Origin: Thermoanaerobaculia bacterium
GTDB lineage: Bacteria > Acidobacteriota > Thermoanaerobaculia > Gp7-AA8
DNA: 64,000 nucleotides
Assembly (NCBI GenBank): GCA_036389275.1
Contig: DASVQE010000106.1
Coordinates: forward strand, 10,178 to 74,177
Reading direction: 5' to 3'
How positions within the stretch are numbered: the first letter of the stretch is position 1; every line of letters starts with the position of its first letter. Below are positions 15,714 through 50,332 of this stretch, in pieces. The position numbers and the translations under genes are program-made. Below the pieces are notes generated by a model that was not told where the DNA came from, made no database searches, and worked only from the letters and a program-made list of their open reading frames with translations.

Positions 15714-15893
15714 ATTTGTGCATGCCGGGACCATCCGTATACGGCCGCGCAATGCCCCTCGATGTGTCCCGTTCATACAATCAATTGCCCAATGCGCGCA
15801 CCTCAGCCGTATTCGCTCGACATAGCCACCCCTTGGTCGCGATCTCCGAGGACCCAACGTGAAGAGATTCAAATCGAGGGCTGGCGTGCGACC

Positions 15894-19448: not shown

Positions 19449-19504
19449 TGATGGAACGACGTACTCACCTCGTGGAGCCTCGATATTAAGTGCCTGGACA
19501 GTGA

Positions 19505-19693: not shown

Positions 19694-19990
19694 ATCTTCT
19701 GGTTGTGTTGCGACACCGCCACTGGATCTTGATCCGGGACGGGACTTCCGTTGGCAGCAAGCGAAGTGTGTACGATTATCGGACGCGCGTCCTTCATATC
19801 AAGGGAGTTCCGCGGAAACGCCAAACCCTACCCACGGATCGGCGCCTGCCCCGGCGATATTTTCCGTGGAGCATCCGTGCGAAAGCTTGAAACATGCAGT
19901 TTTTGGTCGCGGGCCCGCGGGCGACGTTCGCTCGCCAAATTGGCGACCTTGCGAGTCACTTTGCGAGTCTCCAGTTTTAAGTTACCCGCT

Positions 19991-20090
19991 GAAACACGAA
20001 GCGCCGAAGTGGCGTCTGCTGAGTGCTTTAGATTGGCGAGGCCGACGGGCTCGAACCCGCGACATCCGGCATCAGGCCGGCGGTCTTGGC
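19991..20090 (-). repeat. degenerate tRNA-Asp 3' fragment + degenerate terminator hairpin (copy C)
   Basis: Minus strand CCGGCCTGATGCCGGATGTCGCGGGTTCGAGCCCGTCGGCCTCGCCA plus GCGCCGAAGTGGCGTC hairpin; ~230 nt toward lower coordinates also resemble region 25070-25180 next to genuine tRNA. Confidence 0.5.
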
Positions 20091-20142
20091 ATAGAGCGAG
20101 GCAGTCAAGACGATCCTGTAACTCGTCGCACCGCTCCTATTC

Positions 20143-35081: not shown

Positions 35082-36227
35082 ATGAACAGGATGCTCACGC
35101 TGAAACGTGGCAAGGAGCGGATGGCGGCGCACCGGCACCCGTGGATTTTCGCCGGCGCGATTCACGCCGAGCGCGGTCCGGAAGAGGCGCCGTTCGGCGA
35201 GCTGCTCGATGCGGACGGCACGCGCATCGCCTCCGGGTTCTACTCGAAGCCGTCGCAGATCCGGCTGCGCGCGCTGACGTTCGGCAGCGAGCCGGTGACG
35301 GAGGAGCTGATCGCCGAGCGATTGCGCGCCGCGATCCGCCGCCGCGCGCCGATCTTCGACGACGATACGAACGCCGCGCGGGTCGTGCACGCCGAAGGCG
35401 ACGAGTTGAGCAGCATCGTGGTCGATCGCTACAACGATCTGGCCGTCGTGGAGATCTCCAATCGCGGCGCCGAGCAGCTCAAGCCGCTCATCACCGAAGT
35501 GCTGCAGCAGGAGCTCGCGCCGCGGGCGATCTTCTTCAAGAACGATCTGCCGGCGCGCAAGCTGGAAGGCCTGCCGACGGCCGAGGAGCCGGTCGAAGGG
35601 ACGATCATCCGCGAGTCGGGGCTGCAGTTCCGCGTGAATCCATCGGAAGGGCAGAAGACCGGCTTCTTTCTCGATCAGCGCGAGAACCGGCGCCTCACGC
35701 GCACACTCGGCGCAGGCAAACGCGTGCTGAATCTCTTCTCGTACAGCGGCGCGTTCGGCGTCTATGCCGCGGCCGGCGGCGCAACCAGCGTCACCAACGT
35801 CGACGTCTCCGACAAAGCGATCGCGCTGGCGCGCGAGAACCACGCGCTCAACGATTCGGCGGCGGAGTTTCTCGTGGCGGACGCGTTTCAGTACGTGCGG
35901 CAGACGCGCGAGCGCTTCGAGCTTTTGATCTGCGATCCGCCGGCGTTCGCGAAGAGCCGCGGCGACGTCGATCGCGCGGCGCGCGGCTACAAGGACATCA
36001 ACCTGCACGCCATGCGCATGGTCGAAGCGGGCGGACATCTGATGACGTTCTCCTGCTCCGGCCACATGTCGCTCGACCTCTTCCAGAAGGTGATCTTCGC
36101 CGCCGCCCTCGATGCGGGACGGCGCGTGTCGTTCGTGCGGCGCCTCACCGCCGGACCCGATCACCCGGTGTCGATCTACTGTCCCGAAGGGGAGTATTTG
36201 AAGGGGTTTCTACTGGAAGTGCGCTAG
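35082..36227 (+). CDS. rlmI: 23S rRNA m5C1962 methyltransferase RlmI (class I SAM-dependent, PUA-like N-terminus)
   Basis: N-terminus MNRMLTLKRGKERMAAHRHPWIFAGAI typical of RlmI; SAM-binding VLNLFSYSGAFGV and catalytic DPPAFAKS. Confidence 0.85.
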   Translation: MNRMLTLKRGKERMAAHRHPWIFAGAIHAERGPEEAPFGELLDADGTRIASGFYSKPSQIRLRALTFGSEPVTEELIAERLRAAIRRRAPIFDDDTNAARVVHAEGDELSSIVVDRYNDLAVVEISNRGAEQLKPLITEVLQQELAPRAIFFKNDLPARKLEGLPTAEEPVEGTIIRESGLQFRVNPSEGQKTGFFLDQRENRRLTRTLGAGKRVLNLFSYSGAFGVYAAAGGATSVTNVDVSDKAIALARENHALNDSAAEFLVADAFQYVRQTRERFELLICDPPAFAKSRGDVDRAARGYKDINLHAMRMVEAGGHLMTFSCSGHMSLDLFQKVIFAAALDAGRRVSFVRRLTAGPDHPVSIYCPEGEYLKGFLLEVR

Positions 36228-36848
36228 CACGCGGCGGGCGGCATCGGCGGTCGGCGTCCAGCGCAGCCGCAACGCGCGCAGTTTCGCGAGCGCCTCGATG
36301 ATCGGCATCACCGCGCGCCACAAGGCGGGATGCGGCGGCACGACGGCGACGGCGACGAGCGCGCGCATGGCCTCGCGCGCATTGAGAGGCTCGAGCGCGA
36401 CGTCGTCGCCGCGCCCGAGCTCGACGAGCGCGTGCAGCGGAAAGGAGCCCGCCGTCGCCGCGCGCGATTCGAGCTCGCCCCAGAAGCCGCTGGCGCGCGC
36501 GACGAACGCGTCGCCGCGCCGCTCGATGGCGATCAACTCGTCCGACAGCAGCGGCGCGTCGACGAGTGAGGCGAAGGTGCTTTTGCCGGCGCCGGAGCGG
36601 CCGTAGAAGGCGACGGCGCGCCCGCCGATCACGACGCCGGCGCTGTGCAGCAGCAGTCCGCCTGCGAGCGGAAGAAAGCAGGACAGGGCCGTGCGCTCGA
36701 CGATGGCGTCGGCGAACGGACGATCGTCGTCGGAGCAGTCGACGGAGATCGCGCGCGTGAATGGATCGATCGAGGCGTCGAAGCGGGCGTGCTGCACGAC
36801 GACGCGGTCGCCGTCGACGCGGATCTGCGCCGGCTCGCCGTCGTTCAT
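36210..36848 (-). CDS. HprK-related kinase (HPr kinase C-terminal-domain-like P-loop protein) of RiPP-like operon
   Basis: GRSGAGKSTFASL Walker-A in HprK-like context; start (ATGA) coupled to stop of upstream radical SAM gene; ORF track places start at 37100 inside rSAM gene, judged too far upstream. Confidence 0.6.
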   Translation of the reverse strand: MNDGEPAQIRVDGDRVVVQHARFDASIDPFTRAISVDCSDDDRPFADAIVERTALSCFLPLAGGLLLHSAGVVIGGRAVAFYGRSGAGKSTFASLVDAPLLSDELIAIERRGDAFVARASGFWGELESRAATAGSFPLHALVELGRGDDVALEPLNAREAMRALVAVAVVPPHPALWRAVMPIIEALAKLRALRLRWTPTADAARRVLAHFQ

Positions 36849-37849
36849 CCGCGCAGCTCCGCCGCGAGCGTGGCGCGGGCGACGAAGCCGGCGTCGGGCA
36901 GGAGCGGATCGCCGGTCTCCTGCATGGCCAGGGCCGGGCAGTAGGGGAACTGCGCGAGCGGACCGCCGGTGGCGACGAAGTGATCGTTGACGGCGGTCGA
37001 CATCGCGGCCGCTTCGGCGCGGACCTCCGAGGTGTGCCACAGCTCGCGCAGCGGCCGCTCGCGCACGTTGCCGAGGGCGCGATGGCGCCATTGCATGCAC
37101 GGAAAAACGTTGCCTTCGGGATCGATGGCCAGCGTGATGCGGCCGAGGCCGCAGTTCGCGCCGCCGGAGACGCGCTCCATCGGTTCGACGCCGCCGATGA
37201 GAAGCGCGCGGCGCACGGCCTCGCGCGACGGCGCGTAGGTGAGCGGCGAGAGGTCGCCGTCGTCGCGCGGCGTGAGATGGGGATCGATCTGCAGCGGCAG
37301 CTCGCGCGCCGCGGCGAGTGCGACGACGTCATCGAACTGCGTTTCGTTGAGGCGCGTGAGCGGCATCTTCAGCACCACCGGAACCTGGCGCGCGCGGAGC
37401 CGTGCGACGCCGGCGAGCATGGCCTCGAATGATCCCCGGCGCGCCGTCGCCGCCTCATGCACCTCGGCCGTCGCCCCGTGGATGCTCACTTCGACGGCGA
37501 GCACGCGCAGCGCTGCGATGGTGTCGGCGGCGGCGTCGTCGACGAGCGTGGCGTTCGTGAAGATGCGCAGCGCGAAGGCCTGCTCGCGCGCCGCGGCGGC
37601 GATGCGGAAAAACTCCGGATGGGCGAGCGGCTCGCCGCCGGTGAGGACGACGTTGAGCGTGCCGAGCGCGCGCAGCTCGCCGAGGACGGCGATCCACTCG
37701 TCGCCGCAAAGCGCGGCGCGGTCGAAGTGGCGCGGGTTGTAGCAGAAGACGCAGCGCCAGTTGCAGCGATACGTCAGCTCGAGCTGCACGTTCAGCGGCT
37801 GCGCCGCGGCGAGCGCTTTCTGTTTGAGGCGGACGAAGGGATCGCTCAT
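36845..37849 (-). CDS. radical SAM / SPASM-domain peptide-modifying enzyme
   Basis: CNWRCVFC (Cx3Cx2C cluster motif), glycine-rich VLTGGEPL SAM motif, C-terminal SPASM-like CGLGRITLAIDPEGNVFPC ... YCPA; coupled to PqqD-like gene upstream. Confidence 0.8.
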   Translation of the reverse strand: MSDPFVRLKQKALAAAQPLNVQLELTYRCNWRCVFCYNPRHFDRAALCGDEWIAVLGELRALGTLNVVLTGGEPLAHPEFFRIAAAAREQAFALRIFTNATLVDDAAADTIAALRVLAVEVSIHGATAEVHEAATARRGSFEAMLAGVARLRARQVPVVLKMPLTRLNETQFDDVVALAAARELPLQIDPHLTPRDDGDLSPLTYAPSREAVRRALLIGGVEPMERVSGGANCGLGRITLAIDPEGNVFPCMQWRHRALGNVRERPLRELWHTSEVRAEAAAMSTAVNDHFVATGGPLAQFPYCPALAMQETGDPLLPDAGFVARATLAAELRG

Positions 37850-38097
37850 GACTCGGTGAGCAGCCGGCGCTCGCGCAGGAGCGAGAGAAACTCGCGCACG
37901 TCGCGCGAGGCCGATTCCTGGTCGACGTCGAACTTTGCGGCGAGCGCGGCGGCGAGCTCGTGCTCGTCGCGGCCGTCGAGCTGCGTCCAGAGGTACGTGC
38001 CGGTTGGATTGAGACCAATGGTTTTGCCGCTGGCGAGATCGACGATGATCGCCTCACCGTCGACGACCTGCCAGGCGATCTCTTTGGCGACGTGCAT
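37846..38097 (-). CDS. PqqD-family RiPP recognition element (peptide chaperone)
   Basis: IAWQVVDGEAIIVDLASGKTIGLNPTGTYLWTQLDGRDEHELAAALAAKFDV...VREFLSLLRERRLL fits PqqD pattern; start at internal ATG (MHVAKE). Confidence 0.65.
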   Translation of the reverse strand: MHVAKEIAWQVVDGEAIIVDLASGKTIGLNPTGTYLWTQLDGRDEHELAAALAAKFDVDQESASRDVREFLSLLRERRLLTES

Positions 38098-38119
38098 CTT
38101 CACCGCTCGATCCGCCGCG

Positions 38120-38290
38120 TCAACTCGTCGGCGCCGCGTTGCAGATGCCGGCGCGGCCGGCGGTCTTGCCGCAGGCGACCGCAAGCGTCTTGCGCACGTC
38201 GAGCTCCTCTTCCCAGAGGATGGACGGCTTCTCGTATTCGGCTCGCGTCACGTCGCCCGCTGGTGCGGGTTTGTTGTCCTGCTCCGCCAT
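38120..38290 (-). CDS. candidate RiPP precursor peptide (56 aa)
   Basis: MAEQDNKPAPAGDVTRAEYEKPSILWEEELDVRKTLAVACGKTAGRAGICNAAPTS; AGGAA Shine-Dalgarno 5 nt upstream; first gene of operon directly 5' of PqqD/rSAM/kinase; Cys-containing C-terminal core ending in Ser. Confidence 0.45.
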   Translation of the reverse strand: MAEQDNKPAPAGDVTRAEYEKPSILWEEELDVRKTLAVACGKTAGRAGICNAAPTS

Positions 38291-38304
38291 GATTCCTGCC
38301 TCGC

Positions 38305-38329
38305 CCGGCCGGTGCAAAAAACCGGCCGG
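38305..38329 (-). promoter_or_regulatory. perfect 8-bp GC hairpin with oligo-U loop just upstream of precursor gene
   Basis: CCGGCCGG-TTTTTTGCA-CCGGCCGG on minus strand, 7 nt after stop of preceding gene and 15 nt before precursor ATG. Confidence 0.3.
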
Positions 38330-38336
38330 AGCATCC

Positions 38337-38852
38337 TTACTCCGTCACCCGGAAGGTCGCCGGCTTGCTGCAGGCGATCGGCGCGTCGTCGACGTACGCC
38401 TGGGCGCTCCAGGTGCCGTAGATCGAGCTCGTCACGATCGGCGTGCCGGCGACCGGCAGCCGCACGAAGGCGCGGAGCTGCTTGCCGCTCGCGGTGGTCA
38501 CTTCCTCGAGCAGTTGCGTCTCGAGCGTCTGCGGATAGCCTTCGATCGCGACGTGCGAGCCTTTGCGCGACGCGTCGGCGGTGAACGGCACGGTCATCGA
38601 CTGATACAGATGGCCGCGCGGTGTGTAGATCCGCACTTCCACCTTGTGGTTGCCGGCGTACTGCTTGACGGTGCCGGGATGGAAGAGCACGGAGAGATCG
38701 ACGTCGATGACCTGCGTGGCCGAGAAGACGGCGTCGAATTTTCCTTTGTTCTTCTGCTCGGAGCCGAAGGCGACCCCGACGCAGCCGCCCGACTGCGCGA
38801 AGAGCGGTGCGGCGAGGGCGAACGTTGCGAGTGCGAGCGCTAGCTTCTTCAT
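38337..38852 (-). CDS. secreted hypothetical protein
   Basis: Signal peptide MKKLALALATFALAAPLFAQ; 171 aa, no motif. Confidence 0.5.
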   Translation of the reverse strand: MKKLALALATFALAAPLFAQSGGCVGVAFGSEQKNKGKFDAVFSATQVIDVDLSVLFHPGTVKQYAGNHKVEVRIYTPRGHLYQSMTVPFTADASRKGSHVAIEGYPQTLETQLLEEVTTASGKQLRAFVRLPVAGTPIVTSSIYGTWSAQAYVDDAPIACSKPATFRVTE

Positions 38853-38861
38853 GACGGCTCC

Positions 38862-41800
38862 TTACGGCAGCGGCGCGACGACGGCGTAAATCCGTCCCGC
38901 ATCGGTGCCGACGTAAACCTGATTGGTGGAGTAATCGAAGGACGGACTGCCGACGGCGGCGTCGCCCGTGCCGAGGGTGAGCGACTTGATGGTCGGCGCC
39001 GCGGCGGTGAGATTCGTGAGCTGATAGAGCTTGCCGTCGGCGGAGCCGGTGAAGAGGTGACCGCTGCCGGTCAGCAGCGGAATCGACGGGAACGCAATCG
39101 TGCCGACCACCCAATGCTGCGCGGCCGAAGAACCGTTGTTCGTGATCGCCCAGACCTTGTTGGTCGTGGCGACATAGAGATCGTTCGAGCCGTTCGCGAA
39201 ATCGGGATTGACGAAGCCTTTGATCGGACCGTCAGCGGTATCGAAGACCCAATTCTGCGCGCCGGTGGTGGCATTGAACGAATAGACCTTGCCGCTGTTG
39301 TTGCCGACCAGAATGCTGCCGTTGTAGAGCGTGATGCTGGCGTCGGAGTCGCCGGCGCTGATCGGGAAGCCGGTGCATTTCGCGGCGCTGTTGGCGGTGT
39401 AATCGAGGCACCAGATCGTGCCACTGCTGCCGCCGCTCTTGCTGCGGCTGGTGAAATAGAGCTTGTGCGTCGTGCCGCCGAATTCGACCCACGGATCGCC
39501 GCTGATGATGCCGATGCCATTGACGCCGCCGCCGTTATTGAACGACCAGGCCGCCGCACCGGTGGCGGCATTGAGCGCGTAGACCATATTGTCGGCGGTG
39601 GCGTTGCGCGTGGCGGCGAAAATCAGATTGTAGGTGCCGCCGTAGGAGGTGAATTCGCCGACGGGAGCCGCCTGAATCATGCTGCTCGCCGGCTGCGACG
39701 GGTGATTGGCCTTCCAGATCTGCGCGCCGGTATCGCCGTTGACGCAATAGACGAAGCCGTCCTGCGAGCCGAGGTAGAGCACCTTGCGGAGCGTGCCGCT
39801 GATGTCCACCGTCGGCACGGCCGGACGCCCTTGCGAGGCGCCGCCCATGAGGAACGGCAGCCACGTCGACGGCGAGGTCGGCCAGGTGCCGCTGGCCGCG
39901 TTCATCGAATGCAGGAAGCGGTCATTGGCTACTGAATAGACCGACCCGACGCCGGGAGGCGTCATCGACGCGGCGGTGGTGTTGTAGATCCACTTCACCT
40001 GCCCATTCACCGTGTCCTGCGGCCGCGCGGCAATCATGCGGCCATTGGAGACGGCCGTGCCGGCGCCGGTGTCGGTGTAGGCGGAGTAGTAGTAGGTCGT
40101 GCCGTTCTGCAGGCCGGTGACCGTGGTCGAGCTTTTGCCGCCCGGCGTGATGGCGAACGGCGAGCCGGCGACGGCGGTGCCGTCATTGATGCCGTTGGGG
40201 AACTGATCGGTGCGATAGCGGACGTGCAGACGCGAGCCGCTCGCGCCGGCCACCCACTCGATGGTGTTCTGATTGTTGCCCGAGGTCACGGTCATGATTT
40301 GCGAGGTGGCCGCCGGCGCATTACAGGTATTCGACGTGCTCGTGAGCACCTGCAGGTCGTCGATGAACCAGCCGAGATCGTTCGTGGCCGTGCAATTGGA
40401 GAGGCCGGTGAAATAGAACTTCACGCTCTTGCCGGCGCACGTGCCGCCGCACACCTGATCGAGATCGACCAGCGTGTTCTTCATCGTGTTCTGCTGGCCG
40501 CCCCAGATGCCGAGGTTCGCGTAGGGAAGTGCGGTGCCGCAGCCGTCGCCGTTGTCGGCCAGGCGAGTGCCCGTATAGCCGCCGTTGAGGAACGCGGCCG
40601 TCGGGATTTCGATCGCCGCGGCGCCGTTGACGGAGACGCGCAGATGCAGGCCGTCGCGCACGGTGCCGGCCATGTTCCAGCGGTGCCACATCGAGAAGCG
40701 GGCCCGCGTGGTGCCGGCCGGAATGTTGATGGTCGGCGAGGTGAGGTCGTCGTTCGCGCTGGCGCTGTACTGGCCGCCGCAGGTATTGGCGCCCCAGTGC
40801 AGGACGTTGCTGCCGCTGTAGGCAGGCGCGCAGTTCATCGCGCCGCGCCACTGTCCGGCGGCAGTCCAGCCGCTCGGCAGCGAGCCGGCGGTCGTCGTGT
40901 CGAAATTCTCGTAATAGACCGAGGAGAAATTGCCCGGCGACGCGCTCTGCACGACGGTGTTCTTATCTTCATTACCGCCGTTGCAGAGACCGCCGTTGCC
41001 GGTGGTGGAGTCTTCCGCGCGCACCTTGTAGTAGTAGGTCGTGCCGCCGGTGAGGGTGCTGTTGTCGTCGAAGGTGAGCGTCGAAAGGCACTTGGCGATG
41101 TTGTTCGCCGCGGCCGGTGTGAACGTCGAGGTCGTGCCGCGATAGACGTTGTAGACCACCGCCGGCTGGTCGGGGCAGTTGCTGAGACCTTCGCTCCACT
41201 CGAGGTGAATGCTGCAGCTATTGTTGGCGATGACGCCGCCCGGCAGGATCGAGTATTCGGAGGCGCTCTCGATGCCGGCGAACGACGGCACCTGCGCGCA
41301 ACTGCCGGTCGTGCCGGAGACACAGGTCGAACGGATCGACTCGCAATTGCCGGTGGCGGAGTCGATGGCGCTGACCGAATACCAGTAGCTCGTGCCGGAG
41401 ACGGCGCTCGAGTCGGTATAGGAGAGATTGTTCGCCGCGCAGCCGGCGGTGCCGGGGCAGGTGGCGATTTTCACCGGCGTGCCCTGCGGGCAGGCGGCGG
41501 TATTGCGATAGACGCTGTAGCTGCCGGCGCCGGTCGATGCGGCCCAGCCCACCGTGTAGGAGGTATTGGAATTCTTCGTGGCCGTGACGCCGGTCGGCGT
41601 GGCCGGGGCGGTACACGTCAGACAGTCGGGGAAGCGGAATGCCGCGAAGGCGGTGCTCCAATTGAAATTGCCGTCGCTGGCGATGTGCTCGTTGGTATGC
41701 CAGAACGTGCAGTCGTCCATCGGATCGATCGACGTCTGCGAATAATCGCCCCAGCGTGCATTGCCGGCGCTGCCGTCGGGATTGGTGGCCGGCTTGATGC

Positions 41801-43469
41801 CGCCGCCCGGCTGCACGATGGTCTCACCCTTGAGCAGCGGCGCGGTGGTGTTGTCGCCCACCTGCCGTCCATTGACGGCCATGCCCGGTTTCACAGTGCC
41901 GGCGATGCTGTAGCCGATGCCGATGTTCTGGCGCTTGTCCATGGCGATGGAGCCGAGCCAGCGCGCTTTATTGTCGGGCGCGTAGGTTTCCTGCAGCACG
42001 ATGCGCGGCAGGAGGTTCGTGCCGGTGCCGAGGGTCGCTTTCGGAGTGGTATTGGACGGATTGTCGAACAGATACCAGCGGATGCCGGCCGCGGAGCCGC
42101 TGTTGGTCGTGGTTGTGTCGGTGACGGTGTGATTGACCACCAGTCGATCATTGGGCGCGGCCGGCGTGCCGTAATTGCGATAGGCGAGGCGATACATCAG
42201 ATTGTTCGCCAGCGTATCGAGCCTCTGGGTCGTGCCGGGCTGCGGCACGTTCGCGGGCACGGAGTATTGCGTCACGGTGACGTCCTGCGCCGCGCTCACA
42301 GTGAGCGTCGGCGAGGCCGGCCAGGAGCCGTCCGCGTTCGAATTGATCTTGAGCCAGTAGAAGCGGAGGAACCAGCCGCTGTAGCAACAGCCGGAGACGC
42401 TCCGATAGTACGCGGCCGCCGCGCCGGGCATGGCTTGCGGAGGCGCGGTGAAGCCGTCGAGGCTCATCGGGGTGAAGCCGTCGACGGGCGTGGTGGCGTT
42501 CTTGCCGTTGCCGCCGCAGGGCGCCACAGTGGTGGCTTCCTCGCAGAGATAGCCGCTGTCGAGCTGCGTGGCGTCGGGCGCGCCGATGAGGAGCTTGGCG
42601 CGGTCGAAGATCAGCACCTTCGCGCCTTGGAATGCGCCCGCGGTGGTGAAGGCGCGGATGGTCATGTAATAGCCGTCCGGCCAGAGACCGATTTTCTCGT
42701 AATCGCCCATCATCCCGCCGGGAATGGCGTAATCCCAGCGGTAGTAGGTTCCGAGCGGATCGCCGGAGGTGGAGACGGCCAGACATTGATAATCGCTGGT
42801 GGCGCCGGTCGGGCGGCTGACGTCGAACTGGCTCAGGACCCAGCGGTCGGCGAGCTGGTCGTAATAGACGATCGGATCGCCGTCATTATTTTTCGCGCAA
42901 CGGTTGCCGTCAGTAGTCGGAAATCCGTCGAAGAGCGTATTGATGTCGACCGGTCCGTACAGCACGTTTCCCGTCTTGTCGAACACGGTCATCGACGAAT
43001 TCACGAGCTGCACGAAGTGGTTTTTCCCGACCGCACCTTCGGTGTCGGGCGGCTCGCCGGTGATCACATAGCCGCCGCCGGGGAAGGTCGCTCCCTGTCC
43101 CTGATACGTGGTGTTGTTGAGCCAGGTCGGGCCGGAGTCGGTGGTGATGCCGCCGAATCTCCGCGGGCCGCTCTGCGGCGCCTTGATCTCGCGCTCCGAG
43201 GAATCGGTCGTCGGCTGCTGCGGCGTCTGCGTCGCGCGCTCGGTCGCATGGACGCTCGCCAGCGGACCGTAGATGCGCTGGATGGTGACGTGCCCGCTGC
43301 TCTTCATCTCACGCAGCGGCTTCGAGACGTCGTGAACGCCGGGATAGTGCCGCAGTTGCGACACGAACTCCGGCGGCCCGGGCGTCTGCGAGTTGCCTTG
43401 CGCCCACAGCGGCAGCGCGGCCATCGCCGCAACCGCCACTACGCACCACTGCTTTGCACGTCGTTTCAT
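38862..43469 (-). CDS. very large secreted repeat protein (Fn3/Ig-like modules + C-terminal PQQ-type beta-propeller repeats)
   Basis: Signal peptide MKRRAKQWCVVAVAAMAALPLWAQG; Thr/Ser/Gly-rich repetitive modules; C-terminal repeated (A/N)ATGAxxWxF motifs typical of PQQ/BamB-like propellers; start at internal ATG 43467-43469. Confidence 0.7.
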   Translation of the reverse strand: MKRRAKQWCVVAVAAMAALPLWAQGNSQTPGPPEFVSQLRHYPGVHDVSKPLREMKSSGHVTIQRIYGPLASVHATERATQTPQQPTTDSSEREIKAPQSGPRRFGGITTDSGPTWLNNTTYQGQGATFPGGGYVITGEPPDTEGAVGKNHFVQLVNSSMTVFDKTGNVLYGPVDINTLFDGFPTTDGNRCAKNNDGDPIVYYDQLADRWVLSQFDVSRPTGATSDYQCLAVSTSGDPLGTYYRWDYAIPGGMMGDYEKIGLWPDGYYMTIRAFTTAGAFQGAKVLIFDRAKLLIGAPDATQLDSGYLCEEATTVAPCGGNGKNATTPVDGFTPMSLDGFTAPPQAMPGAAAAYYRSVSGCCYSGWFLRFYWLKINSNADGSWPASPTLTVSAAQDVTVTQYSVPANVPQPGTTQRLDTLANNLMYRLAYRNYGTPAAPNDRLVVNHTVTDTTTTNSGSAAGIRWYLFDNPSNTTPKATLGTGTNLLPRIVLQETYAPDNKARWLGSIAMDKRQNIGIGYSIAGTVKPGMAVNGRQVGDNTTAPLLKGETIVQPGGGIKPATNPDGSAGNARWGDYSQTSIDPMDDCTFWHTNEHIASDGNFNWSTAFAAFRFPDCLTCTAPATPTGVTATKNSNTSYTVGWAASTGAGSYSVYRNTAACPQGTPVKIATCPGTAGCAANNLSYTDSSAVSGTSYWYSVSAIDSATGNCESIRSTCVSGTTGSCAQVPSFAGIESASEYSILPGGVIANNSCSIHLEWSEGLSNCPDQPAVVYNVYRGTTSTFTPAAANNIAKCLSTLTFDDNSTLTGGTTYYYKVRAEDSTTGNGGLCNGGNEDKNTVVQSASPGNFSSVYYENFDTTTAGSLPSGWTAAGQWRGAMNCAPAYSGSNVLHWGANTCGGQYSASANDDLTSPTINIPAGTTRARFSMWHRWNMAGTVRDGLHLRVSVNGAAAIEIPTAAFLNGGYTGTRLADNGDGCGTALPYANLGIWGGQQNTMKNTLVDLDQVCGGTCAGKSVKFYFTGLSNCTATNDLGWFIDDLQVLTSTSNTCNAPAATSQIMTVTSGNNQNTIEWVAGASGSRLHVRYRTDQFPNGINDGTAVAGSPFAITPGGKSSTTVTGLQNGTTYYYSAYTDTGAGTAVSNGRMIAARPQDTVNGQVKWIYNTTAASMTPPGVGSVYSVANDRFLHSMNAASGTWPTSPSTWLPFLMGGASQGRPAVPTVDISGTLRKVLYLGSQDGFVYCVNGDTGAQIWKANHPSQPASSMIQAAPVGEFTSYGGTYNLIFAATRNATADNMVYALNAATGAAAWSFNNGGGVNGIGIISGDPWVEFGGTTHKLYFTSRSKSGGSSGTIWCLDYTANSAAKCTGFPISAGDSDASITLYNGSILVGNNSGKVYSFNATTGAQNWVFDTADGPIKGFVNPDFANGSNDLYVATTNKVWAITNNGSSAAQHWVVGTIAFPSIPLLTGSGHLFTGSADGKLYQLTNLTAAAPTIKSLTLGTGDAAVGSPSFDYSTNQVYVGTDAGRIYAVVAPLP

Positions 43470-43489
43470 CTCTCTCTCCGGTGTCGGGA

Positions 43490-43942
43490 TCAATCGTTCT
43501 CGCGGAAGCCTTCCGGGGCAAAGGACTGCATGGTCACGCGCCACTCACCGCGCTCGCGTTTCCAGACGGCGAAGTAGCCGCCGTCTTCTTCGCGGAAATC
43601 GCCCGGTCCGGCCAGCACACGCAGTTTCCAGCGGCCCATCTGCACATACAGGTCGCCGGACTCCTCGGATTTTTCGGTGGTCAGCTCGAAGGTGCCGCGC
43701 TCGAGCATGGCGCGCCATTTGTCGCGCGCCTCTTCGCGGCTGCGGGTGATGCCCTGGCCGGCGAAGGCGATGATCGGCTCGGCGGCGTAGAAGCGGCGCA
43801 CGAGCGTCTCGACGTCGCCTTTGTTGGCGGTCGCGACCAGCGCTTCGCTTTTCTCGTCGAGCTCGCGGCACGGAGTCGTGGCGCAAGCCGCTCCGGCAAG
43901 CGTCGTCACGACGGCGAAGACCGCTACGAACCTCGAGGGCAT
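43490..43942 (-). CDS. SnoaL/NTF2-like (DUF4440-type) lipoprotein
   Basis: Signal/lipobox-like N-terminus (LAGAAC); NTF2-fold-like pattern (RRFYAAEPIIAFAG...YFAVWKRERGEWRV). Confidence 0.5.
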   Translation of the reverse strand: MPSRFVAVFAVVTTLAGAACATTPCRELDEKSEALVATANKGDVETLVRRFYAAEPIIAFAGQGITRSREEARDKWRAMLERGTFELTTEKSEESGDLYVQMGRWKLRVLAGPGDFREEDGGYFAVWKRERGEWRVTMQSFAPEGFREND

Positions 43943-44014
43943 CTAGCTCTCCAAATGGCAGCCGAACCATCCACGTGCACGATGCACGGGGACTTCATGC
44001 TTTGCGTCCCTGCC

Positions 44015-45040
44015 TCACGACAGGTTTGCTCTTTTCATCGGGGCGAACTGCGCTCGATGATGGACCTTGGCTGCGGATTGTACTGAATAACCAACCGGCG
44101 CGCGGAAAAGTCCCATCGCCCGGCGGCAATAGAGAAAGGGCAATAGCAGACGCGACGTTGCGCCGTATTTGTGCAGCACGTGCTCGGCCGGCGGCAAGGC
44201 GTGCTCGCGCACGAAACGGACGCGGTCGGCGACTCCGGAGAGCTCGCGAAAATCGGCCGCGAACTGGCGCATGGCCGAGGGACGTCCGGTGGCGCGCGTC
44301 TCCATGGCGGTGGCGGCGGCGAGGCCGCGGGCCAGCTCGCGCAGTACGCGTTTCTCGCGCGCGGTGCGCATCACTTCGGGCCAGTCGACGATGCCGGCCA
44401 AGAGGTGAATGTCGTGCAGCCAGATCAGCCGCTCTTCGCCGCAGTGATGCCCGGCCAGATGCACGGCCGCGAGCAGCAGCGCGTCGACGGCGCTCGGCAC
44501 GCGCACGCGCTGCGAATCGCGGAAGCGCTCGCCGCGCGCGCGCAGCGCGTCGAAGTCGAAGGCGCGGGCGAAGCGCGGGCGATTGGAAATCTCGAGATGC
44601 AGATCGACGCTGTGGCGCAGGCCGAGGGCGTCGACGCGCGTGAAGATCCGCTGGGCGTTGACGATCGTGCCGCTGTTGCCGCTCTCGGCCGTGTAGCCGA
44701 GGGCGGTCAGGATCTGTGCGGCCGCGCGGCCGTCGCCGCGACGCACGACCAGATCGGTGTCGCAGCGCGGGCGCAGCGACGGATGGTCGTAGAGCGTGTA
44801 GGCGAGGGCGGTTCCTTTGATGATGAGCGCGTCGACGGCGGCGCGATCGAACGCAGCGAGGAGCGCGTCGAGCTCGCGCTCGCGCAGCACCTCGACCGTG
44901 ACGAGCTGCCGCGACTCGGCGGCGAGCGCTTCCGGCACCGCCGCGCCGCGGCGGCGCAGCTCGCGCGCGACGAGCGGTCCGACGCCTTCGCGCGTGGCCA
45001 CGGCGGGATCGAGCGCGGCGTAAAAGTCGCCCGGATTCAT
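44015..45040 (-). CDS. uncharacterised nucleotidyltransferase-family protein (PF14907-like), RiPP-associated type
   Basis: RCDTDLVV (Asp pair after Gly/Ser stretch) and overall size/pattern similar to nucleotidyltransferases seen beside lasso-peptide-type machinery; ATGA-coupled to B2-like gene upstream. Confidence 0.5.
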   Translation of the reverse strand: MNPGDFYAALDPAVATREGVGPLVARELRRRGAAVPEALAAESRQLVTVEVLRERELDALLAAFDRAAVDALIIKGTALAYTLYDHPSLRPRCDTDLVVRRGDGRAAAQILTALGYTAESGNSGTIVNAQRIFTRVDALGLRHSVDLHLEISNRPRFARAFDFDALRARGERFRDSQRVRVPSAVDALLLAAVHLAGHHCGEERLIWLHDIHLLAGIVDWPEVMRTAREKRVLRELARGLAAATAMETRATGRPSAMRQFAADFRELSGVADRVRFVREHALPPAEHVLHKYGATSRLLLPFLYCRRAMGLFRAPVGYSVQSAAKVHHRAQFAPMKRANLS

Positions 45041-45483
45041 CGGCGGTACGCCAGCGCCAGGCCCTGCTCGGCGATGTGGATGGGTTGATAGCGGGAGACG
45101 AGCTCGGCGGAGTCGTTGACGACGGCGCCGTTCACTTCGAGCCAGGCGTGGCCCGGCAGCAGCGACGGCTTCGCGCCGAGGCCGATGCGCAGTCGGGCGC
45201 GCACACCGCGCCGCGCCAGCACCCGCTGCAGGGCGAGGCTGCGATGCATGCAGTTGTGCGCGAACGGCGCGCGCGCGGCGGCTCTCGCGAATGCCGCGAC
45301 CACGCGCGGATCGGCCGGCGCGGCGCTGGCTTCACCGTCGAGCGCGCCGCGCAGCGCGCGTTGCGGCGCGAGGCGAAGCGCGATGCGCGCGCAGGCGAGC
45401 GCCAGCAGGCACTCGGCCGCGAGGCCGGTCGTTCTGGGAATGGACACGATTGTGCGGAAGAACTTTCCTCCGCCTCTGTTCAT
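45037..45483 (-). CDS. transglutaminase-like Cys protease of lasso-peptide B2 type (PF13471-like)
   Basis: CMHRSLALQRVLARRGVRARLRIGLG...LLPGHAWLEVNGAVVND: Cys...His-Ala-Trp...Asp arrangement characteristic of lasso B2 leader peptidases; start taken at internal ATG to avoid overlap with divergent gspE start. Confidence 0.55.
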   Translation of the reverse strand: MNRGGGKFFRTIVSIPRTTGLAAECLLALACARIALRLAPQRALRGALDGEASAAPADPRVVAAFARAAARAPFAHNCMHRSLALQRVLARRGVRARLRIGLGAKPSLLPGHAWLEVNGAVVNDSAELVSRYQPIHIAEQGLALAYRR

Positions 45484-45509
45484 TTCCTGCGAGTACCATT
45501 CTTTCGGCC

Positions 45510-47315
45510 ATGACCACCGCTCCGACATCACCGCTGCAGAAGGCGCACGACCTCACCGTCGCCTACCTCGGCGAGCTGTTGTTCAACGCCGGCTTCATCG
45601 ACGAGCGGCAGCGCGCCGACGTCGAGGCCGCCGACCGGCAGTTCCGGCTCGCGCAGCGCGGCTCGCGCGGCCGCGGCGAAGAAGACGCGAGCCCGTTCCG
45701 CGTGATCGCCTCGATGAACCTCGTCGACGCCAGCGGCAACGCCACGCGCATCGACGACTTCCTGCTGGCGCGCCTGATCGCCGAGGACGCGCGCCTGCCG
45801 TTCCACAAAATTGACGCGCTCAAGCTCGACGTGCAGCTCGTCGAATCGAAGATCTCGCGTCCGTTCGCGCGCAAGCACAAGATGGTTCCGGTGGCCGTGC
45901 GCGACGGCAAGCTCGTCGTGGCCATGGTCAATCCGTTCGACCGCGTCGCGCTCGACTCCTACCGCCCGATGGCGAAGCAGGAGCTCGAGGTCGTCGTCGC
46001 CGCGGAGTCGGACGTGATGGGTGTGATCAACGAGCAGTACGGATTCCGCGCCTCGGTCACGAAGGCGGAGCGCGACCTGACGCGCGGCGCGATCGATCTC
46101 TCCAACCTCGAGCAGTACGTCAAGCTCAAGTCGGGCGCGGAGATCGAGACCAGCGACGCGCACATCGTCAACGCCGTCGATTTTCTTCTGCAGCACGCCT
46201 ACGACTCGCGCGCCTCCGACATCCACATCGAGCCGAAGCGCGAGCACGCCAACATCCGCTTCCGCATCGACGGCGTGCTGCACGAGATCCAGCGCGTGCC
46301 GAAGCTGGTGAATCTCGCCATCACCTCGCGCCTCAAGACGATGTGCCGGATGGACATCGCCGAGAAGCGCCGGCCGCAGGACGGCCGCATCAAGACCGAG
46401 CGCGAAGGAAAAGAGATCGAGCTGCGCGTCTCGACGCTGCCGACCGCGTTCGGCGAGAAAGTGGTGATGCGCATCTTCGATCCCGAGGTGATGATTCGCG
46501 ACCTCGGCGGCCTCGGGTTTTATGAGGACGAGCTGCGAGTCTTCGCCGACTGGATCAAGCGTCCGCACGGCATCATCCTCGTCACCGGACCGACCGGCTC
46601 CGGCAAGACCGTCACGCTCTACTCCGCGCTCAAGTCGCTGGCCTCGCCCGAGATCAACATCACCACCATCGAAGATCCGATCGAGATGGTGCACGACGAC
46701 TTCAACCAGACCTCGGTGCAGAACAAGATCGGGATCACCTTCGCGTCGGCGCTGCGCACCATCCTGCGGCAGGACCCCGACATCATCATGGTCGGCGAGA
46801 TCCGCGATCAGGAGACTGCACAGAATGCAGTGCAGGCCGCGCTGACCGGACATCTGGTCTTCTCGACGCTGCACACCAACGACGCCTCGACCTCGATCAC
46901 GCGCCTGGTCGATCTCGGCATCCAGCCCTTCCTGATCTCCTCGACGCTGATCGGCGCGATGGCGCAGCGGCTGGTGCGGAAGATCTGCGCCGACTGCCGC
47001 ACCAATCGTCCGCTGACGGTGGAAGAGGCGGCCATGCTCAACCTGCAGGCGCCGGCCGGCAAGCGGATCATCGTGAAGGAAGGCGCCGGCTGCATCCGCT
47101 GCCGCAACACCGGCTACTTCGGCCGCACCGGCATCTTCGAGATCCTGCCGGTCGACAACGCCATCCGCGATCTGGTCGACCGCGGCGAGGACTTTCTGAA
47201 GATCAAGGAGATGGCCATCAAGCGCGGCATGCGCACGCTGCGTCAGAGCGCGCTGCGGAAGCTCGCCGAAGGGCTGACCAGCTTCGAGGAAGTGGTGCGG
47301 GTGACCGGGATTTAA
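45510..47315 (+). CDS. type II secretion / type IV pilus assembly ATPase (GspE/PilB family)
   Basis: Walker A VTGPTGSGKTVTLYS, Asp box, Walker B IIMVGEIRD, His box, tetracysteine CADC...CIRC; N-terminal GspII_E_N-like region. Confidence 0.85.
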   Translation: MTTAPTSPLQKAHDLTVAYLGELLFNAGFIDERQRADVEAADRQFRLAQRGSRGRGEEDASPFRVIASMNLVDASGNATRIDDFLLARLIAEDARLPFHKIDALKLDVQLVESKISRPFARKHKMVPVAVRDGKLVVAMVNPFDRVALDSYRPMAKQELEVVVAAESDVMGVINEQYGFRASVTKAERDLTRGAIDLSNLEQYVKLKSGAEIETSDAHIVNAVDFLLQHAYDSRASDIHIEPKREHANIRFRIDGVLHEIQRVPKLVNLAITSRLKTMCRMDIAEKRRPQDGRIKTEREGKEIELRVSTLPTAFGEKVVMRIFDPEVMIRDLGGLGFYEDELRVFADWIKRPHGIILVTGPTGSGKTVTLYSALKSLASPEINITTIEDPIEMVHDDFNQTSVQNKIGITFASALRTILRQDPDIIMVGEIRDQETAQNAVQAALTGHLVFSTLHTNDASTSITRLVDLGIQPFLISSTLIGAMAQRLVRKICADCRTNRPLTVEEAAMLNLQAPAGKRIIVKEGAGCIRCRNTGYFGRTGIFEILPVDNAIRDLVDRGEDFLKIKEMAIKRGMRTLRQSALRKLAEGLTSFEEVVRVTGI

Positions 47316-47677: not shown

Positions 47678-50332
47678 CTAACGCTTCCAGTCGGTCACCA
47701 GCGTGATCGAGCGCAGATAGTCGTTGCGATCCTTGAGCAGGTAGACGAAGTGTTTGCCGTCGATGGTGGCGACGTTCTCGAGGTCAGGCGGATGGTTCAC
47801 GATCCGCTGCGGGTCGCCGACACGCACGGTGTTGCCGTCGAAGGTGAGGCGTACCAGGTCGAAGCCGTCCTTCTTGAGCAGCAGCAGCGCGTCGTTGCCG
47901 ATCCATTGCGCGCGATAAGCGGTGTCGAAAGTGATCTGCGTGCGCGCGGCGCCGTTCGGGTAGCGCGAGATGTAGACCTCCGGCTGGCCGGAGTCGTACG
48001 CGCGGTAGGCGAGCCAGCGGTCGTCGGGTGAGAGCACCGGCACGCTTGGTTCGGCGGCGCCCGTCACCAGCGCCTCGGGCTTCGCGCCGGGATGCAGCGC
48101 CAGACGGTCGATCTCCGCGTTGCCGTCGCGCTGCGTATCGTGCTTGACCACGATCGCGTAGGTGGCGTCGTGCGTGACGTCGGCGGTGTTGTACGAGTAC
48201 GGCATCTCGGCGCCGCGATAGAGCACTTCCTCCGGCGCGTCGGTATCGAGCGAGCGCAGCACGATCTGCTGCTCGTCGACGCCGAAGCCGTGGCTGCGCG
48301 TCAACACGATGCGCCGCGAGTCATGCAGCCACGCGGCGTCCCATTCGTTCACGTCCGCCGTCGAGGTGAGCCGCTTCGCGCCGCTGCGGTTCATGTCGAA
48401 GAGCCAGAGATCGCCGTAGCCGCTCTGCGCGTCGACGGCGCGCACGAGCATCTTCTGCCCGTCCGGCGAGAGCAGAAAGGCCTCGACGTCGAGCTGCGGG
48501 CGGAAGAGCTCCTTCTGCACGCCGCCGGCTTCGACCGAAACGAAGTGCAGCGATTCCGGACCGCCGCGCTGGTGATAGACGAGCGTGCCGTCGCCGGCCA
48601 CCGCGAACGCGGAGCGGAAGAGCGCGGTGTTGACCTCGACCGCCGCGCCGACGCGATACGGATCGCCGGTGAAGCGGAGTTCGCCGGCATCGAACGGCCG
48701 CGCCAGCAGCACGCCGTCCTTCTCGTACAGCAGATGTCCGCTCGCGTAGGCGACGTTCGATCGCGCGCGCAGCAGCAGCTTGCGCGACTTCGGCTCGTCG
48801 AGCGAGCTGACGTAGACGGCGTCGAGCTCGCGGTTCGTCGCCTCGCGATGCGAGCCGGCCAGGTAGAGGAAATGCTTTCCGTCGGGGAGGAACGTGGCCC
48901 AGCGATGGGTGGTCTCGTCCTTCGACGCGTCGAGTTGCGTCAGCGCCACCGGCTCGCCGCCGTCCTGCGACACGCGCGACAGACCGCTGACGGCGGTCGG
49001 CGCGAAGATGATCGTCCCGTCCGCGTTCCACCCGCCGCTGCGTCCTTTCGGCGCGTCGCAGAGCGTGACCGGCGGCGCGCCGTTGAGCGTCACTTTCTTC
49101 AGCTTGCCGCCGGCGAAGAAGGCGATCGACTTGCTGTCGGGCGACCAGAACGGCAGCGACGCATCTTCCGTCCCGTCGACCTGCCGCGCCTCGCCGCTGG
49201 CGATGTCGCGCACCCACAGCCGCCGGTCGCTCGTTGCGCGGTACGTCACCAGCCGGCCGTCGGGCGAGATCGAGAGCGCCGTCATCGGATCGTTGAGCTC
49301 TTTGCCCGCGGGCGCGAGGATCTGCGCCGTGACCGCGGTGCGCGCGATGTCGCGATGCGCGTTGCGCCACGCATACGCGCCGGCGATCGCCGCCAGCACC
49401 AGAGCGCAGGCGGCGGCGATCCACGGCAGCAGCGACGACCGCGGGCGCTGCGCCTCGACGCGCGCGTCGGCGTTCTTCGCCACCCATTCCAGCTCGAGCC
49501 GCACGTCGTGCGCCGACTGCCAGCGCGCCTCCTGATCTTTCTCGAGGCAGCGCTGCACGATGTGCTCGAGTCCCGCCGGCGTGACCGGCTGCAGCTCCGA
49601 CATCGGCCGCGGCGAGCCGGCCACGATCGCGGCGATGAGGCTCGTCTTGGTCTTGCCGGAGAAGGCGCGCCTTCCGGTGACCATCTCGTAGATCACCGCG
49701 CCGAGCGCGAACAGGTCGGTGCGCGGATCGACGTCGGCCGACTCGAGCTGCTCCGGCGCCATGTATTGAAAGGTCCCGACGATCGATCCCTCGGCGGTGA
49801 GCGGCGCTTTCTGCGCCACCGTCGGCGCGTCGACCGAGATCGCCGGCTGCGCCTCCGCCGCCGCTTTGGCCAGTCCGAAGTCGAGCAGCTTCGCGCCGCC
49901 GCGGGTGAGCATGACGTTGCCCGGCTTCAGATCGCGGTGCACCACGCCGTCGCGATGCGCGCGCTCGAGTGCCGCGGCGATGTCGATGGCGTAGCGCAGC
50001 GCCTCCTTGAGCGGCAGCGCGCCGCGCTCGAGCCGCTCGGCCAGCGTCTCTCCTTCGAGAAACTCCATCACCAGGAAATCGACGCCGTCCTGTTCGCCGA
50101 CGTCGTAGAGCGCGCAGATGTTCGGGTGGCTGAGCGCGGAGATCGCCTTCGCCTCGCGCTGGAACCGCAGCCGCAGTTGCGCGTCGCGCGCGAGCTCGGC
50201 CGGCAGCGTCTTCACCGCCACGGTGCGGTCGAGGCGCGTGTCGCGCGCGCGAAACACTTCACCCATGCCGCCCGCGCCGACGCGCGTCACGATCTCGTAC
50301 GGTCCCAAACGCGAGCCCGGCTGGATGGACAT
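47678..50332 (-). CDS. Ser/Thr protein kinase with TM segment and C-terminal TolB-like (PD40) beta-propeller
   Basis: N-terminal Hanks kinase (GAGGMGEVFRA, VAVKTL, HRDLKPGNVM, DFGLAK, APEQ); single TM (LLPWIAAACALVLAAIAGAY); repeated xDGxxxVY / SPDG propeller blades. Confidence 0.8.
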   Translation of the reverse strand: MSIQPGSRLGPYEIVTRVGAGGMGEVFRARDTRLDRTVAVKTLPAELARDAQLRLRFQREAKAISALSHPNICALYDVGEQDGVDFLVMEFLEGETLAERLERGALPLKEALRYAIDIAAALERAHRDGVVHRDLKPGNVMLTRGGAKLLDFGLAKAAAEAQPAISVDAPTVAQKAPLTAEGSIVGTFQYMAPEQLESADVDPRTDLFALGAVIYEMVTGRRAFSGKTKTSLIAAIVAGSPRPMSELQPVTPAGLEHIVQRCLEKDQEARWQSAHDVRLELEWVAKNADARVEAQRPRSSLLPWIAAACALVLAAIAGAYAWRNAHRDIARTAVTAQILAPAGKELNDPMTALSISPDGRLVTYRATSDRRLWVRDIASGEARQVDGTEDASLPFWSPDSKSIAFFAGGKLKKVTLNGAPPVTLCDAPKGRSGGWNADGTIIFAPTAVSGLSRVSQDGGEPVALTQLDASKDETTHRWATFLPDGKHFLYLAGSHREATNRELDAVYVSSLDEPKSRKLLLRARSNVAYASGHLLYEKDGVLLARPFDAGELRFTGDPYRVGAAVEVNTALFRSAFAVAGDGTLVYHQRGGPESLHFVSVEAGGVQKELFRPQLDVEAFLLSPDGQKMLVRAVDAQSGYGDLWLFDMNRSGAKRLTSTADVNEWDAAWLHDSRRIVLTRSHGFGVDEQQIVLRSLDTDAPEEVLYRGAEMPYSYNTADVTHDATYAIVVKHDTQRDGNAEIDRLALHPGAKPEALVTGAAEPSVPVLSPDDRWLAYRAYDSGQPEVYISRYPNGAARTQITFDTAYRAQWIGNDALLLLKKDGFDLVRLTFDGNTVRVGDPQRIVNHPPDLENVATIDGKHFVYLLKDRNDYLRSITLVTDWKR

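Follow-up and report, generated by a model that had tools for sequence, protein, structure and literature searches.

We analysed a 64,000-nucleotide stretch of a Thermoanaerobaculia bacterium genome (GenBank assembly GCA_036389275.1, contig DASVQE010000106.1, positions 10,178 to 74,177 of the forward strand; hereafter the window), and found on its minus strand a locus that is probably an operon for a peptide made on ribosomes and modified after translation (RiPP), of an uncharacterised family, with a precursor that would be modified at cysteine by a radical S-adenosylmethionine (SAM) enzyme and phosphorylated at its terminal serine. What is new about the locus is that the recognition-kinase-nucleotidyltransferase-peptidase module of lasso peptides and linear polyphosphorylated peptides (LPPs) is joined to radical SAM chemistry. 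The family is large, recurs in numerous bacteria of soils, belongs mainly to Acidobacteriota, and has relatives in Chloroflexota, Gammaproteobacteria and other phyla; the product of the gene cluster appears to be uncharacterised so far.

The four core genes and the precursor peptide

The core of the locus consists of four minus-strand genes lying between 38290 and 36210, whose open reading frames (ORFs) encode a peptide of 56 aa, a protein of the PqqD type, a radical SAM/SPASM enzyme and, lastly, a kinase-fold P-loop protein. A first-pass annotation of the window had described these four coupled genes, and each of the ORFs is present; the same four, the 56-aa one included, are also predicted by independent callers (NCBI, JGI), with the annotation 'hypothetical protein'. 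The annotation had further joined all of them by ATGA overlaps. This is true of the PqqD/radical SAM and radical SAM/kinase junctions, but not of the precursor and PqqD genes, which are separated by a 22-nt spacer. The core features are as follows.

38120..38290, minus strand: precursor peptide gene, 56 aa plus stop, MAEQDNKPAPAGDVTRAEYEKPSILWEEELDVRKTLAVACGKTAGRAGICNAAPTS (NCBI and JGI gene calls; conserved residues)
38186..38290, minus strand: predicted leader, residues 1-35 or 1-36, with Y19-E-K-P22 (invariant YxxP)
38123..38185, minus strand: predicted core, LAVACGKTAGRAGICNAAPTS, with C40, K42, C50 and C-terminal S56 (motif conservation)
37846..38097, minus strand: discrete PqqD-type RiPP recognition element (RRE), 83 aa (Pfam PqqD, E=3.7e-20)
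36845..37849, minus strand: radical SAM enzyme, 334 aa, with CX3CX2C (CNWRCVFC) and a reduced SPASM domain (Pfam Radical_SAM 4e-24, SPASM 4.6e-9)
36210..36848, minus strand: predicted ScmC-like P-loop kinase, 212 aa, PEPCK/HprK fold (motifs, profile search, predicted structure)

The peptide (MAEQ...NAAPTS) bears out its initial description as a Cys-containing, Ser-terminated product with a good ribosome-binding site, since GAGG/AGGA lies 4-14 nt before the ATG, two Cys are present and Ser is the last residue. The first-pass annotation had let its case hinge on conservation of this ORF in homologous loci. Using a profile of the fourth protein, the kinase, and scanning one genome per species, we collected 80 loci, mostly from acidobacterial metagenome-assembled genomes (MAGs) of Thermoanaerobaculia, Holophagales, Vicinamibacteria and Candidatus Acidiferrales; the 65 fetched loci that contain all three enzymes form the denominator of the counts given below. 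Homologs of the 56-aa peptide were found by tblastn in 43 distinct loci, all of them Ser-terminated, and 60 of the 65 related loci encode a motif-matching peptide no more than 1.5 kb from the enzymes. Aligning 19 diverse members shows Y19, P22, C40 and C50 to be invariant. When 5.8 billion proteins were searched by profile for relatives of the peptide, 356 clusters came back, none of them named or with a Pfam domain, and among the best 120 of these 356 every one (120/120) is Ser-terminated and matches Y..P...C.K.{5-8}C.{5-8}S-stop. The tail preceding the terminal Ser varies (PTS, PGS, VSS, QGS, RRS) while the Ser itself is constant. A YxxP leader, the Cys-Lys-Cys pattern and a terminal Ser also recur beside ScmC-like, PqqD and radical SAM genes in Anaerolineae, Gammaproteobacteria and other phyla.

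A shuffled 64-kb window contains on average 0.12 instances of the peptide motif in its loose form, and a chance ORF is ruled out by the conservation of the peptide in the 43 tblastn loci, the best 120 of 356 clusters and the 60 of 65 loci. Likewise, the L-A-V-A-C stretch is not a lipoprotein or signal-peptide motif, since the segment preceding it is acidic and hydrophilic and has no hydrophobic h-region. The precursor is unmatched by any NCBIfam or Pfam model, and no second copy of it was found in the window. The radical SAM gene of two related loci (L034:3761-4062 and L049:4273-4732) is followed by a tandem pair of precursor genes whose cores differ. Taken together, these findings define a precursor family, with a YxxP leader, a C-x-K...C core and an obligatory terminal Ser, for sets of ScmC-type kinase, PqqD and radical SAM genes that were formerly catalogued by name alone.

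Recognition, radical SAM and kinase-fold proteins

The assignment of the second protein to the PqqD family stands (Pfam PqqD, 72.5 bits against a cut-off of 23.4). Its top NCBIfam match is lasso_PqqD_Strm (5.5e-11), and among solved proteins it comes closest to the lasso B1 protein TbiB1 (2.5e-9), a 'lasso peptide biosynthesis PqqD family chaperone' and TfuB1, with PqqD itself ranking below, an outcome that bears favourably on the RRE fold expected by the first-pass annotation. Judged by its sequence, the 83-aa protein is closest to the lasso B1 recognition proteins. The [Y/W]xxP motif is the one bound by lasso and LPP RREs (PMC13381572), and the proposal that the 83-aa protein would bind the leader at YEKP is strongly supported. 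It would then hand the peptide over to the radical SAM enzyme, which itself lacks a recognition domain. Regarding the end of the leader, PMC10368454 places a Thr at -2 near the lasso leader/core junction, and LPP leaders are cleaved after T-1 (PMC13381572); because a Thr lies near the junction in both cases, we predict the boundary to fall after T35 or L36.

The radical SAM enzyme contains the CX3CX2C motif reported initially, but the SPASM-like C-terminus ascribed to it is there only in part. Across 40 orthologs the CX3CX2C motif, C233, C251 and C304 are invariant, and in the window enzyme these last three are the only SPASM Cys kept, corresponding to auxiliary cluster I, while a CX2CX5CX3C block is absent. 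The Acidiferrales branch retains the full SPASM block (CX2CX5CX2C). By comparison with anSME-type SPASM domains, we take the Cys lost in the window branch to be ligands of auxiliary cluster II. Core peptides are nearly alike between the two branches, and the loss of auxiliary cluster II from one of them with the core peptide essentially unchanged represents a natural experiment on the need for this cluster.

By its sequence the enzyme belongs to no named family. It reached no curated NCBIfam cut-off, scoring 113.1 against 265 for MftC, 109.4 against 381 for PqqE and 112 against 515 for NirJ, and the MftC, NirJ, PqqE, ScmE and StsB profiles match it over the generic core only. The peptide has neither the Glu-x3-Tyr of pyrroloquinoline quinone (PQQ) precursors nor the C-terminal Val-Tyr of mycofactocin. 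A radical SAM enzyme of the PQQ, mycofactocin or heme-d1 type, the cofactor-maturation possibility that the first-pass annotation had kept in view, is thus ruled out by the missed cut-offs together with the residues of the precursor. The best solved relatives are SkfB and PqqE, the first of which, SkfB, forms thioethers.

A locus from Vicinamibacteria (L028:7350-8639) is the only one found to carry precursor, PqqD and ScmC-like genes with no radical SAM gene. In its peptide, Arg replaces the first Cys (LMAARAK) and the Tyr of YxxP is gone, while the second Cys and the terminal Ser are kept. That this sole locus lacking the enzyme has also lost Cys1 is anecdotal but agrees with an action of the enzyme on Cys; it is either a natural 'knock-out' tying Cys1 to the enzyme or a decaying system.

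The HPr kinase kinship claimed for the fourth protein holds at the level of the superfamily, while no close HprK match was found. H68, G83-x-S-G-A-G-K-(S/T) and L-S-D-E104 are invariant in the kinase alignment and align to the kinase-1a and kinase-2 motifs of ATP-PEPCK, which was also retrieved by a profile search of PDB (1.7e-6). With a structural model of predicted local distance difference test (pLDDT) score 94 as query, the top 50 Foldseek matches were all PEPCK or HprK/P. Matches in NCBIfam were limited to HprK_rel_B (E=5e-4), HprK_rel_A (2e-3) and a weak one to SynChlorMet ScmC, whereas the Acidiferrales ortholog matched TIGR04249 ScmC at 2.9e-11 and HprK_rel_A at 9.6e-7. A precomputed match to PF27840 'ScmC' is flagged 'weak' on the window protein and stands unmarked on a relative, P0077; a local Pfam scan gave none at E<=0.1. 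Sequence and model together indicate that the fourth protein is, by prediction, a PEPCK/HprK-fold P-loop kinase with intact catalytic motifs, and that its likeness to HPr kinase is at superfamily level. Its close subfamily comprises ~161 clusters (50% identity), and ~5,800 reach E<=1e-10. Four metagenomic proteins of 497-627 aa (P0297, P0382, P0395, P0399) carry Radical_SAM and/or SPASM and, at their C-terminus, a ScmC-like kinase domain; these may be genuine fusions, or else artefacts from read-through at the ATGA overlap.

We questioned whether these enzymes might share the labour differently within a RiPP pathway, with the radical SAM enzyme acting on the C-terminal Ser, as MftC does, or on the Lys, and with the ScmC-like protein not serving as the final Ser-O-kinase. 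Phosphorylation of Ser could for instance be followed by elimination to dehydroalanine and formation of a lanthionine-type ring with Cys50, or of a C-terminal amide; alternatively, the ScmC-like protein could be an ATP-dependent scaffold. Aided by a PqqD-like partner, MftC acts on the last residue of its peptide, and the mycofactocin maturase is the top NCBIfam match of the radical SAM enzyme, but this match spans the generic core only (residues 16-188) and amounts to 113 bits against 265. The Lys between the two Cys is invariant, and the radical SAM::ScmC fusions suggest tight coupling of both activities; in the Vicinamibacteria locus, however, it is Cys1 that was lost along with the radical SAM gene, while Ser and kinase were kept. 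Phosphorylation followed by elimination is established lanthipeptide chemistry, but neither a lyase nor an elimination domain is present, those HprK-type RiPP kinases that are characterised leave a stable (poly)phosphate on Ser, and NTP_transf_5 co-occurs with the kinase, as in phosphate-decorating pathways. Considering these points, we regard such a division of labour as unlikely, and retain the reading in which the radical SAM enzyme would act on Cys and the kinase on the terminal Ser.

Neighbouring genes and the proposed pathway

The first-pass annotation had treated 36210-38329 as the whole unit, which proved too narrow. The minus-strand run from 45483 to 36210 comprises nine co-directional genes with gaps of no more than 73 nt, in the order B2 protease, NTP_transf_5, DUF4440 protein, 1535-aa propeller protein, p171 and then the four core genes, and the functional unit extends past 36210-38329, up to 45483. 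The features upstream of the core are these.

38300..38325, minus strand: GC-rich hairpin CCGGCCGG-TTTTTTGCA-CCGGCCGG, perfect 8-bp, situated between the stop codon of p171 and the ribosome-binding site of the precursor
38337..38852, minus strand: p171, secreted 171-aa Ig-like beta-sandwich protein (signal peptide; conserved acidobacterial neighbour)
38862..43469, minus strand: 1535-aa secreted protein with a C-terminal PQQ_2/BamB-like beta-propeller (~1122-1534; domain and neighbourhood comparison)
43490..43942, minus strand: DUF4440 protein, 150 aa, signal-like segment at the N-terminus (confined to this lineage)
44015..45040, minus strand: NTP_transf_5 nucleotidyltransferase, 341 aa, candidate PsmN/LppN counterpart (PF14907, 123.9 bits)
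45037..45483, minus strand: lasso B2-type cysteine protease, 148 aa, Transglut_core3 (1.9e-21), candidate leader peptidase

A terminator-like site lies near the hairpin (region 38300-38344). The hairpin may be a partial terminator or processing site, and the two elements together may set the ratio of upstream to core-operon transcript. The number of sites returned by a promoter and terminator scan of 35800-46200 was not above that in shuffles, and the operon boundaries are therefore drawn from gene spacing alone.

The B2 protein matches NF033537 lasso_biosyn_B2 with 61.5 bits against a cut-off of 33 and has its Cys, His-Ala-Trp and Asp motifs intact. Of the 65 loci 5 have it, and it adjoins the operon in three (L012, L018, L024). 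In sister loci B2 is replaced by an archaeal-type signal-peptidase-like (SpI) protease with G-S-S-M-x-P, H-R and K-G-D motifs, found in 30 of the 65 loci and absent from the window locus; in an Acidiferrales complete chromosome (L033), where gene order differs from that of the window, the SpI-like protein scores 53.4 against a TIGR02228 cut-off of 51.85. Three gammaproteobacterial SpI-like proteins encoded beside the kinase (L065:7159-7722, L072:1403-1840, L077:7163-7459) have Cys (GECMTP, GDCMAP or GDCMTP) for the presumed nucleophile Ser of GSSMxP. NTP_transf_5 occurs in 27 of the 65 loci, where, like the SpI-like peptidase, it is a neighbour of the kinase, and the window protein clusters with the nucleotidyltransferase encoded directly upstream of the kinase in Acidiferrales loci. 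In a Lentisphaerae MAG (L071:10079-11590), a 503-aa ORF with an SpI-like N-terminus fused to NTP_transf_5 adjoins ScmC-like, PqqD and radical SAM genes. The peptidase and nucleotidyltransferase accompany the core across phyla.

In contrast, the propeller and p171 are almost wholly confined to Acidobacteriota among the 65 loci. Of the 1535-aa protein it is the propeller that is conserved beside the operon, with homologs in 30 of the loci; p171 homologs occur in 32. The AlphaFold2 (AF2) model of p171 has a pLDDT of 84 and gave weak fold matches to CARDB, Wzt-CBD and RhoGDI, all of them generic Ig-like beta-sandwich matches (template modelling (TM) score 0.3-0.5) that point to no function. The DUF4440 protein is a doubtful member of the system. 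The sister clade nearest to the window (L004:1-5707) encodes its neighbouring secreted proteins, of 173, 1558 and 1680 aa, on the opposite strand; the 1680-aa protein carries a subtilisin S8 domain together with a PQQ_2 propeller, and the 173-aa protein is not detectably similar to p171.

Such neighbours raise the question of whether the peptide is not a free product but the precursor of a cofactor or small cross-linked subunit for the secreted beta-propeller, on the model of PqqA/PqqD/PqqE, which supply PQQ propeller dehydrogenases, or of QhpC/QhpD for quinohemoprotein amine dehydrogenase (QHNDH). In favour of this, the operon is co-conserved with a PQQ_2-type propeller and p171 in several acidobacterial classes and in either gene order, its enzymes resemble PqqD and PqqE, the core is unusually conserved, and no exporter or immunity gene turned up in the 10-kb flanks or the large ORFs of the window. 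Clusters for QHNDH also encode a subtilisin-like protease, and the L004 neighbour pairs such a domain with the propeller. Outside Acidobacteriota, however, the same set of peptide, kinase, PqqD and radical SAM genes occurs with neither propeller nor p171, which are therefore lineage-specific accessories. The propeller proteins are moreover large and multidomain (fn3, disaggregatase repeats) rather than dehydrogenase-like, and bear signal peptides where the peptide does not. Every cofactor radical SAM family cut-off was missed widely, the core is devoid of the target residues of PqqA (Glu, Tyr) and MftA (C-terminal Val-Tyr), and the leader, RRE and B2/SpI peptidases are like those of lasso peptides and LPPs, systems that yield free peptides. 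We thus consider a cofactor or subunit precursor quite unlikely, and return to a peptide released from its leader.

According to the pathway we propose, once the lasso-B1-type PqqD protein has delivered the precursor, the radical SAM enzyme would modify the core at the two invariant Cys, the likeliest product being one or two Cys-to-carbon thioethers like those of sacti- and ranthipeptides; a three-Cys auxiliary cluster would leave an open site for a substrate thiolate. By analogy with PadeK, PsmK and LppK, the ScmC-like kinase would phosphorylate the invariant C-terminal Ser56, and NTP_transf_5 might further decorate the Ser56 phosphate, as PsmN adds hexose in pseudomycoidin. The B2-type cysteine protease would cut off the leader near T35/L36, a step that the SpI-like enzyme would perform in sister loci. 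The acidobacterial product probably acts in concert with the secreted beta-propeller and Ig-like proteins that are conserved beside the operon. The scheme makes the testable prediction of -2 Da cross-links at Cys and of +80 Da (or multiples thereof) at the last Ser.

Several points weigh against this pathway. All of the modifications are predictions from the genes. The radical SAM enzyme is about equidistant in NCBIfam from thioether-, C-C- and cofactor-forming families, and a thioether is for this reason only the likeliest of several outcomes. The kinase is related to HprK only distantly (NCBIfam E about 1e-3) and has no Pfam Hpr_kinase_C match, and the model explains no role for the invariant Lys between the two Cys. 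The Vicinamibacteria locus is a single case that may just reflect decay of the system. B2 is present in only 5 of the 65 loci, and in the window three secreted-protein genes stand between B2/NTP_transf_5 and the four-gene core. Finally, neither the 10 kb on each side nor the large ORFs of the window yielded a gene for export or immunity.

The window has further features of its own. Three ORFs of ~1100-1180 aa within 11951-23469, with GC content at third codon positions below that of the rest of the window, encode a TPR+CHAT protein (15894-19448, minus strand), a CpXC+CHAT protein (20143-23469, plus strand) and a protein with no Pfam match (11951-15277, minus strand); the region may be a horizontally acquired caspase-like (CHAT) module. 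Upstream of the cluster lie two T2SSE/MshEN-type secretion ATPases (45291-47315 and 50843-53149), of which one has a GAF domain, along with a PD40-repeat Ser/Thr protein kinase (47678-50332). No link of the secretion ATPases or the PD40 kinase to the peptide system was seen in other loci.

Comparison with known systems

Sactipeptide and ranthipeptide maturases (SkfB, AlbA, CteB, PapB) resemble the system in combining a radical SAM enzyme having an auxiliary Fe-S domain with a Cys-containing core and an RRE. CteB has a three-Cys auxiliary cluster with an open site. Unlike in these systems, where the RRE is an N-terminal domain, it is a separate protein here, no family cut-off was reached, and a kinase, a nucleotidyltransferase and B2 or SpI stand alongside the radical SAM enzyme.

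The SynChlorMet cassette of NCBIfam (TIGR04248-04251) names the same kinds of parts: a ScmC-type P-loop protein, ScmD as a PqqD relative, and ScmE/F as PqqE-like radical SAM/SPASM enzymes. Were the locus a plain member of this cassette (ScmC/ScmD/ScmE/ScmF), there would be nothing new in it, and both the precomputed Pfam 'ScmC' match of the fourth protein, 'weak' as it is flagged, and the TIGR04249 match of the Acidiferrales ortholog point that way. All four equivalog cut-offs were nonetheless missed widely (ScmC 12.7 against 125, ScmD 34.7 against 100, ScmE 100.2 against 400, ScmF 65.5 against 400), ruling out a SynChlorMet equivalog, and the locus has a single radical SAM gene rather than two. 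We know of no precursor identified for SynChlorMet, whereas a conserved precursor family, matching no NCBIfam or Pfam model, is defined here. Plain membership is thus very improbable. No paper on the cassette name was found in the literature searched. The HPr-rel-A system (TIGR04352/04353), also invoked by the first-pass annotation, was matched below its cut-offs (HprK_rel_A 17.3 against 200, PqqD_rel_X 29.6 against 35).

The literature bears out the claim that a C-terminal Ser is phosphorylated by kinases of lasso clusters: PsmK, of the HprK family, does so on a lasso precursor, as does PadeK, and in pseudomycoidin hexose is attached to the phosphate by PsmN, an uncharacterised NTP transferase (Zyubko et al. 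2019, PMC6993621). The phosphorylated lasso peptides paeninodin and pseudomycoidin share with the window locus a split B1 (RRE)/B2 (Cys protease) arrangement, a [Y/W]xxP leader, an HprK-family kinase with a C-terminal Ser in the precursor, and an NTP-transferase-like phosphate-modifying enzyme, but a radical SAM/SPASM enzyme stands here where the cyclase would be. Neither the genes called in the 10-kb flanks nor the large ORFs of the window include an Asn-synthetase-like lasso cyclase, and the core LAVACGKTAGRAGICNAAPTS has no Asp or Glu, hence no acceptor at core position 7-9. A lasso peptide is ruled out by the missing cyclase and acidic acceptor.

LPPs, described from Bacillota (Popov et al. 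2026, Nat Commun, PMC13381572), are made by a module of RRE, HprK-like kinase, NTP-transferase and leader peptidase that has no radical SAM enzyme; their leader reads YxxPxVLxHQxIxFET and Ser3 is polyphosphorylated. The same source restricts LPPs and paeninodins to Bacillota and never mentions radical SAM (PMC13381572). Shared with the present system are a discrete lasso-type RRE, a YxxP leader of similar spacing, a kinase of the HprK superfamily (a match at superfamily level only) with an uncharacterised NTP transferase and, in many sister loci, a leader peptidase resembling signal peptidase I of the archaeal type. The window locus differs in having a radical SAM enzyme, in being acidobacterial, and in having B2 instead of SpI and a kinase of the ScmC family rather than Hpr_kinase_C. 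LPP cores are long, variable and phosphorylated at Ser3, in contrast to the short two-Cys core ending in Ser seen here, and LPPs have an MsbA-type exporter whereas no ABC transporter was found in the 10-kb flanks or among the large ORFs of the window.

Apart from the missing exporter, the window has the core gene set of phosphorylated lasso peptides and LPPs, plus a radical SAM enzyme. The first-pass annotation had held that a kinase with a radical SAM maturase is not a described RiPP class. This is right insofar as literature searches on SynChlorMet, HprK with radical SAM, and Acidobacteria with RiPP and kinase found no description of the combination, but a similar set is named in NCBIfam as SynChlorMet and the kinase module is published as that of LPPs. 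Going further, we tentatively suggest, and hold with some reserve, that the system represents a new RiPP class, a lasso/LPP-radical SAM hybrid in which radical SAM cross-links at two Cys would be combined with a phosphorylated, possibly phospho-glycosylated, C-terminal Ser; it would be widespread in uncultivated soil phyla, its acidobacterial peptides being partners of secreted beta-propeller and Ig-like proteins rather than classical antibiotics. Most of the hosts are Acidobacteriota that are uncultivated, and hardly any peptide natural products are known from them. Taken together, these comparisons link three RiPP lines, namely lasso B1/B2 processing, the LPP family and the radical SAM/SPASM maturases, and indicate that the module for recognition, phosphorylation and leader removal can pair with another primary modifying enzyme.

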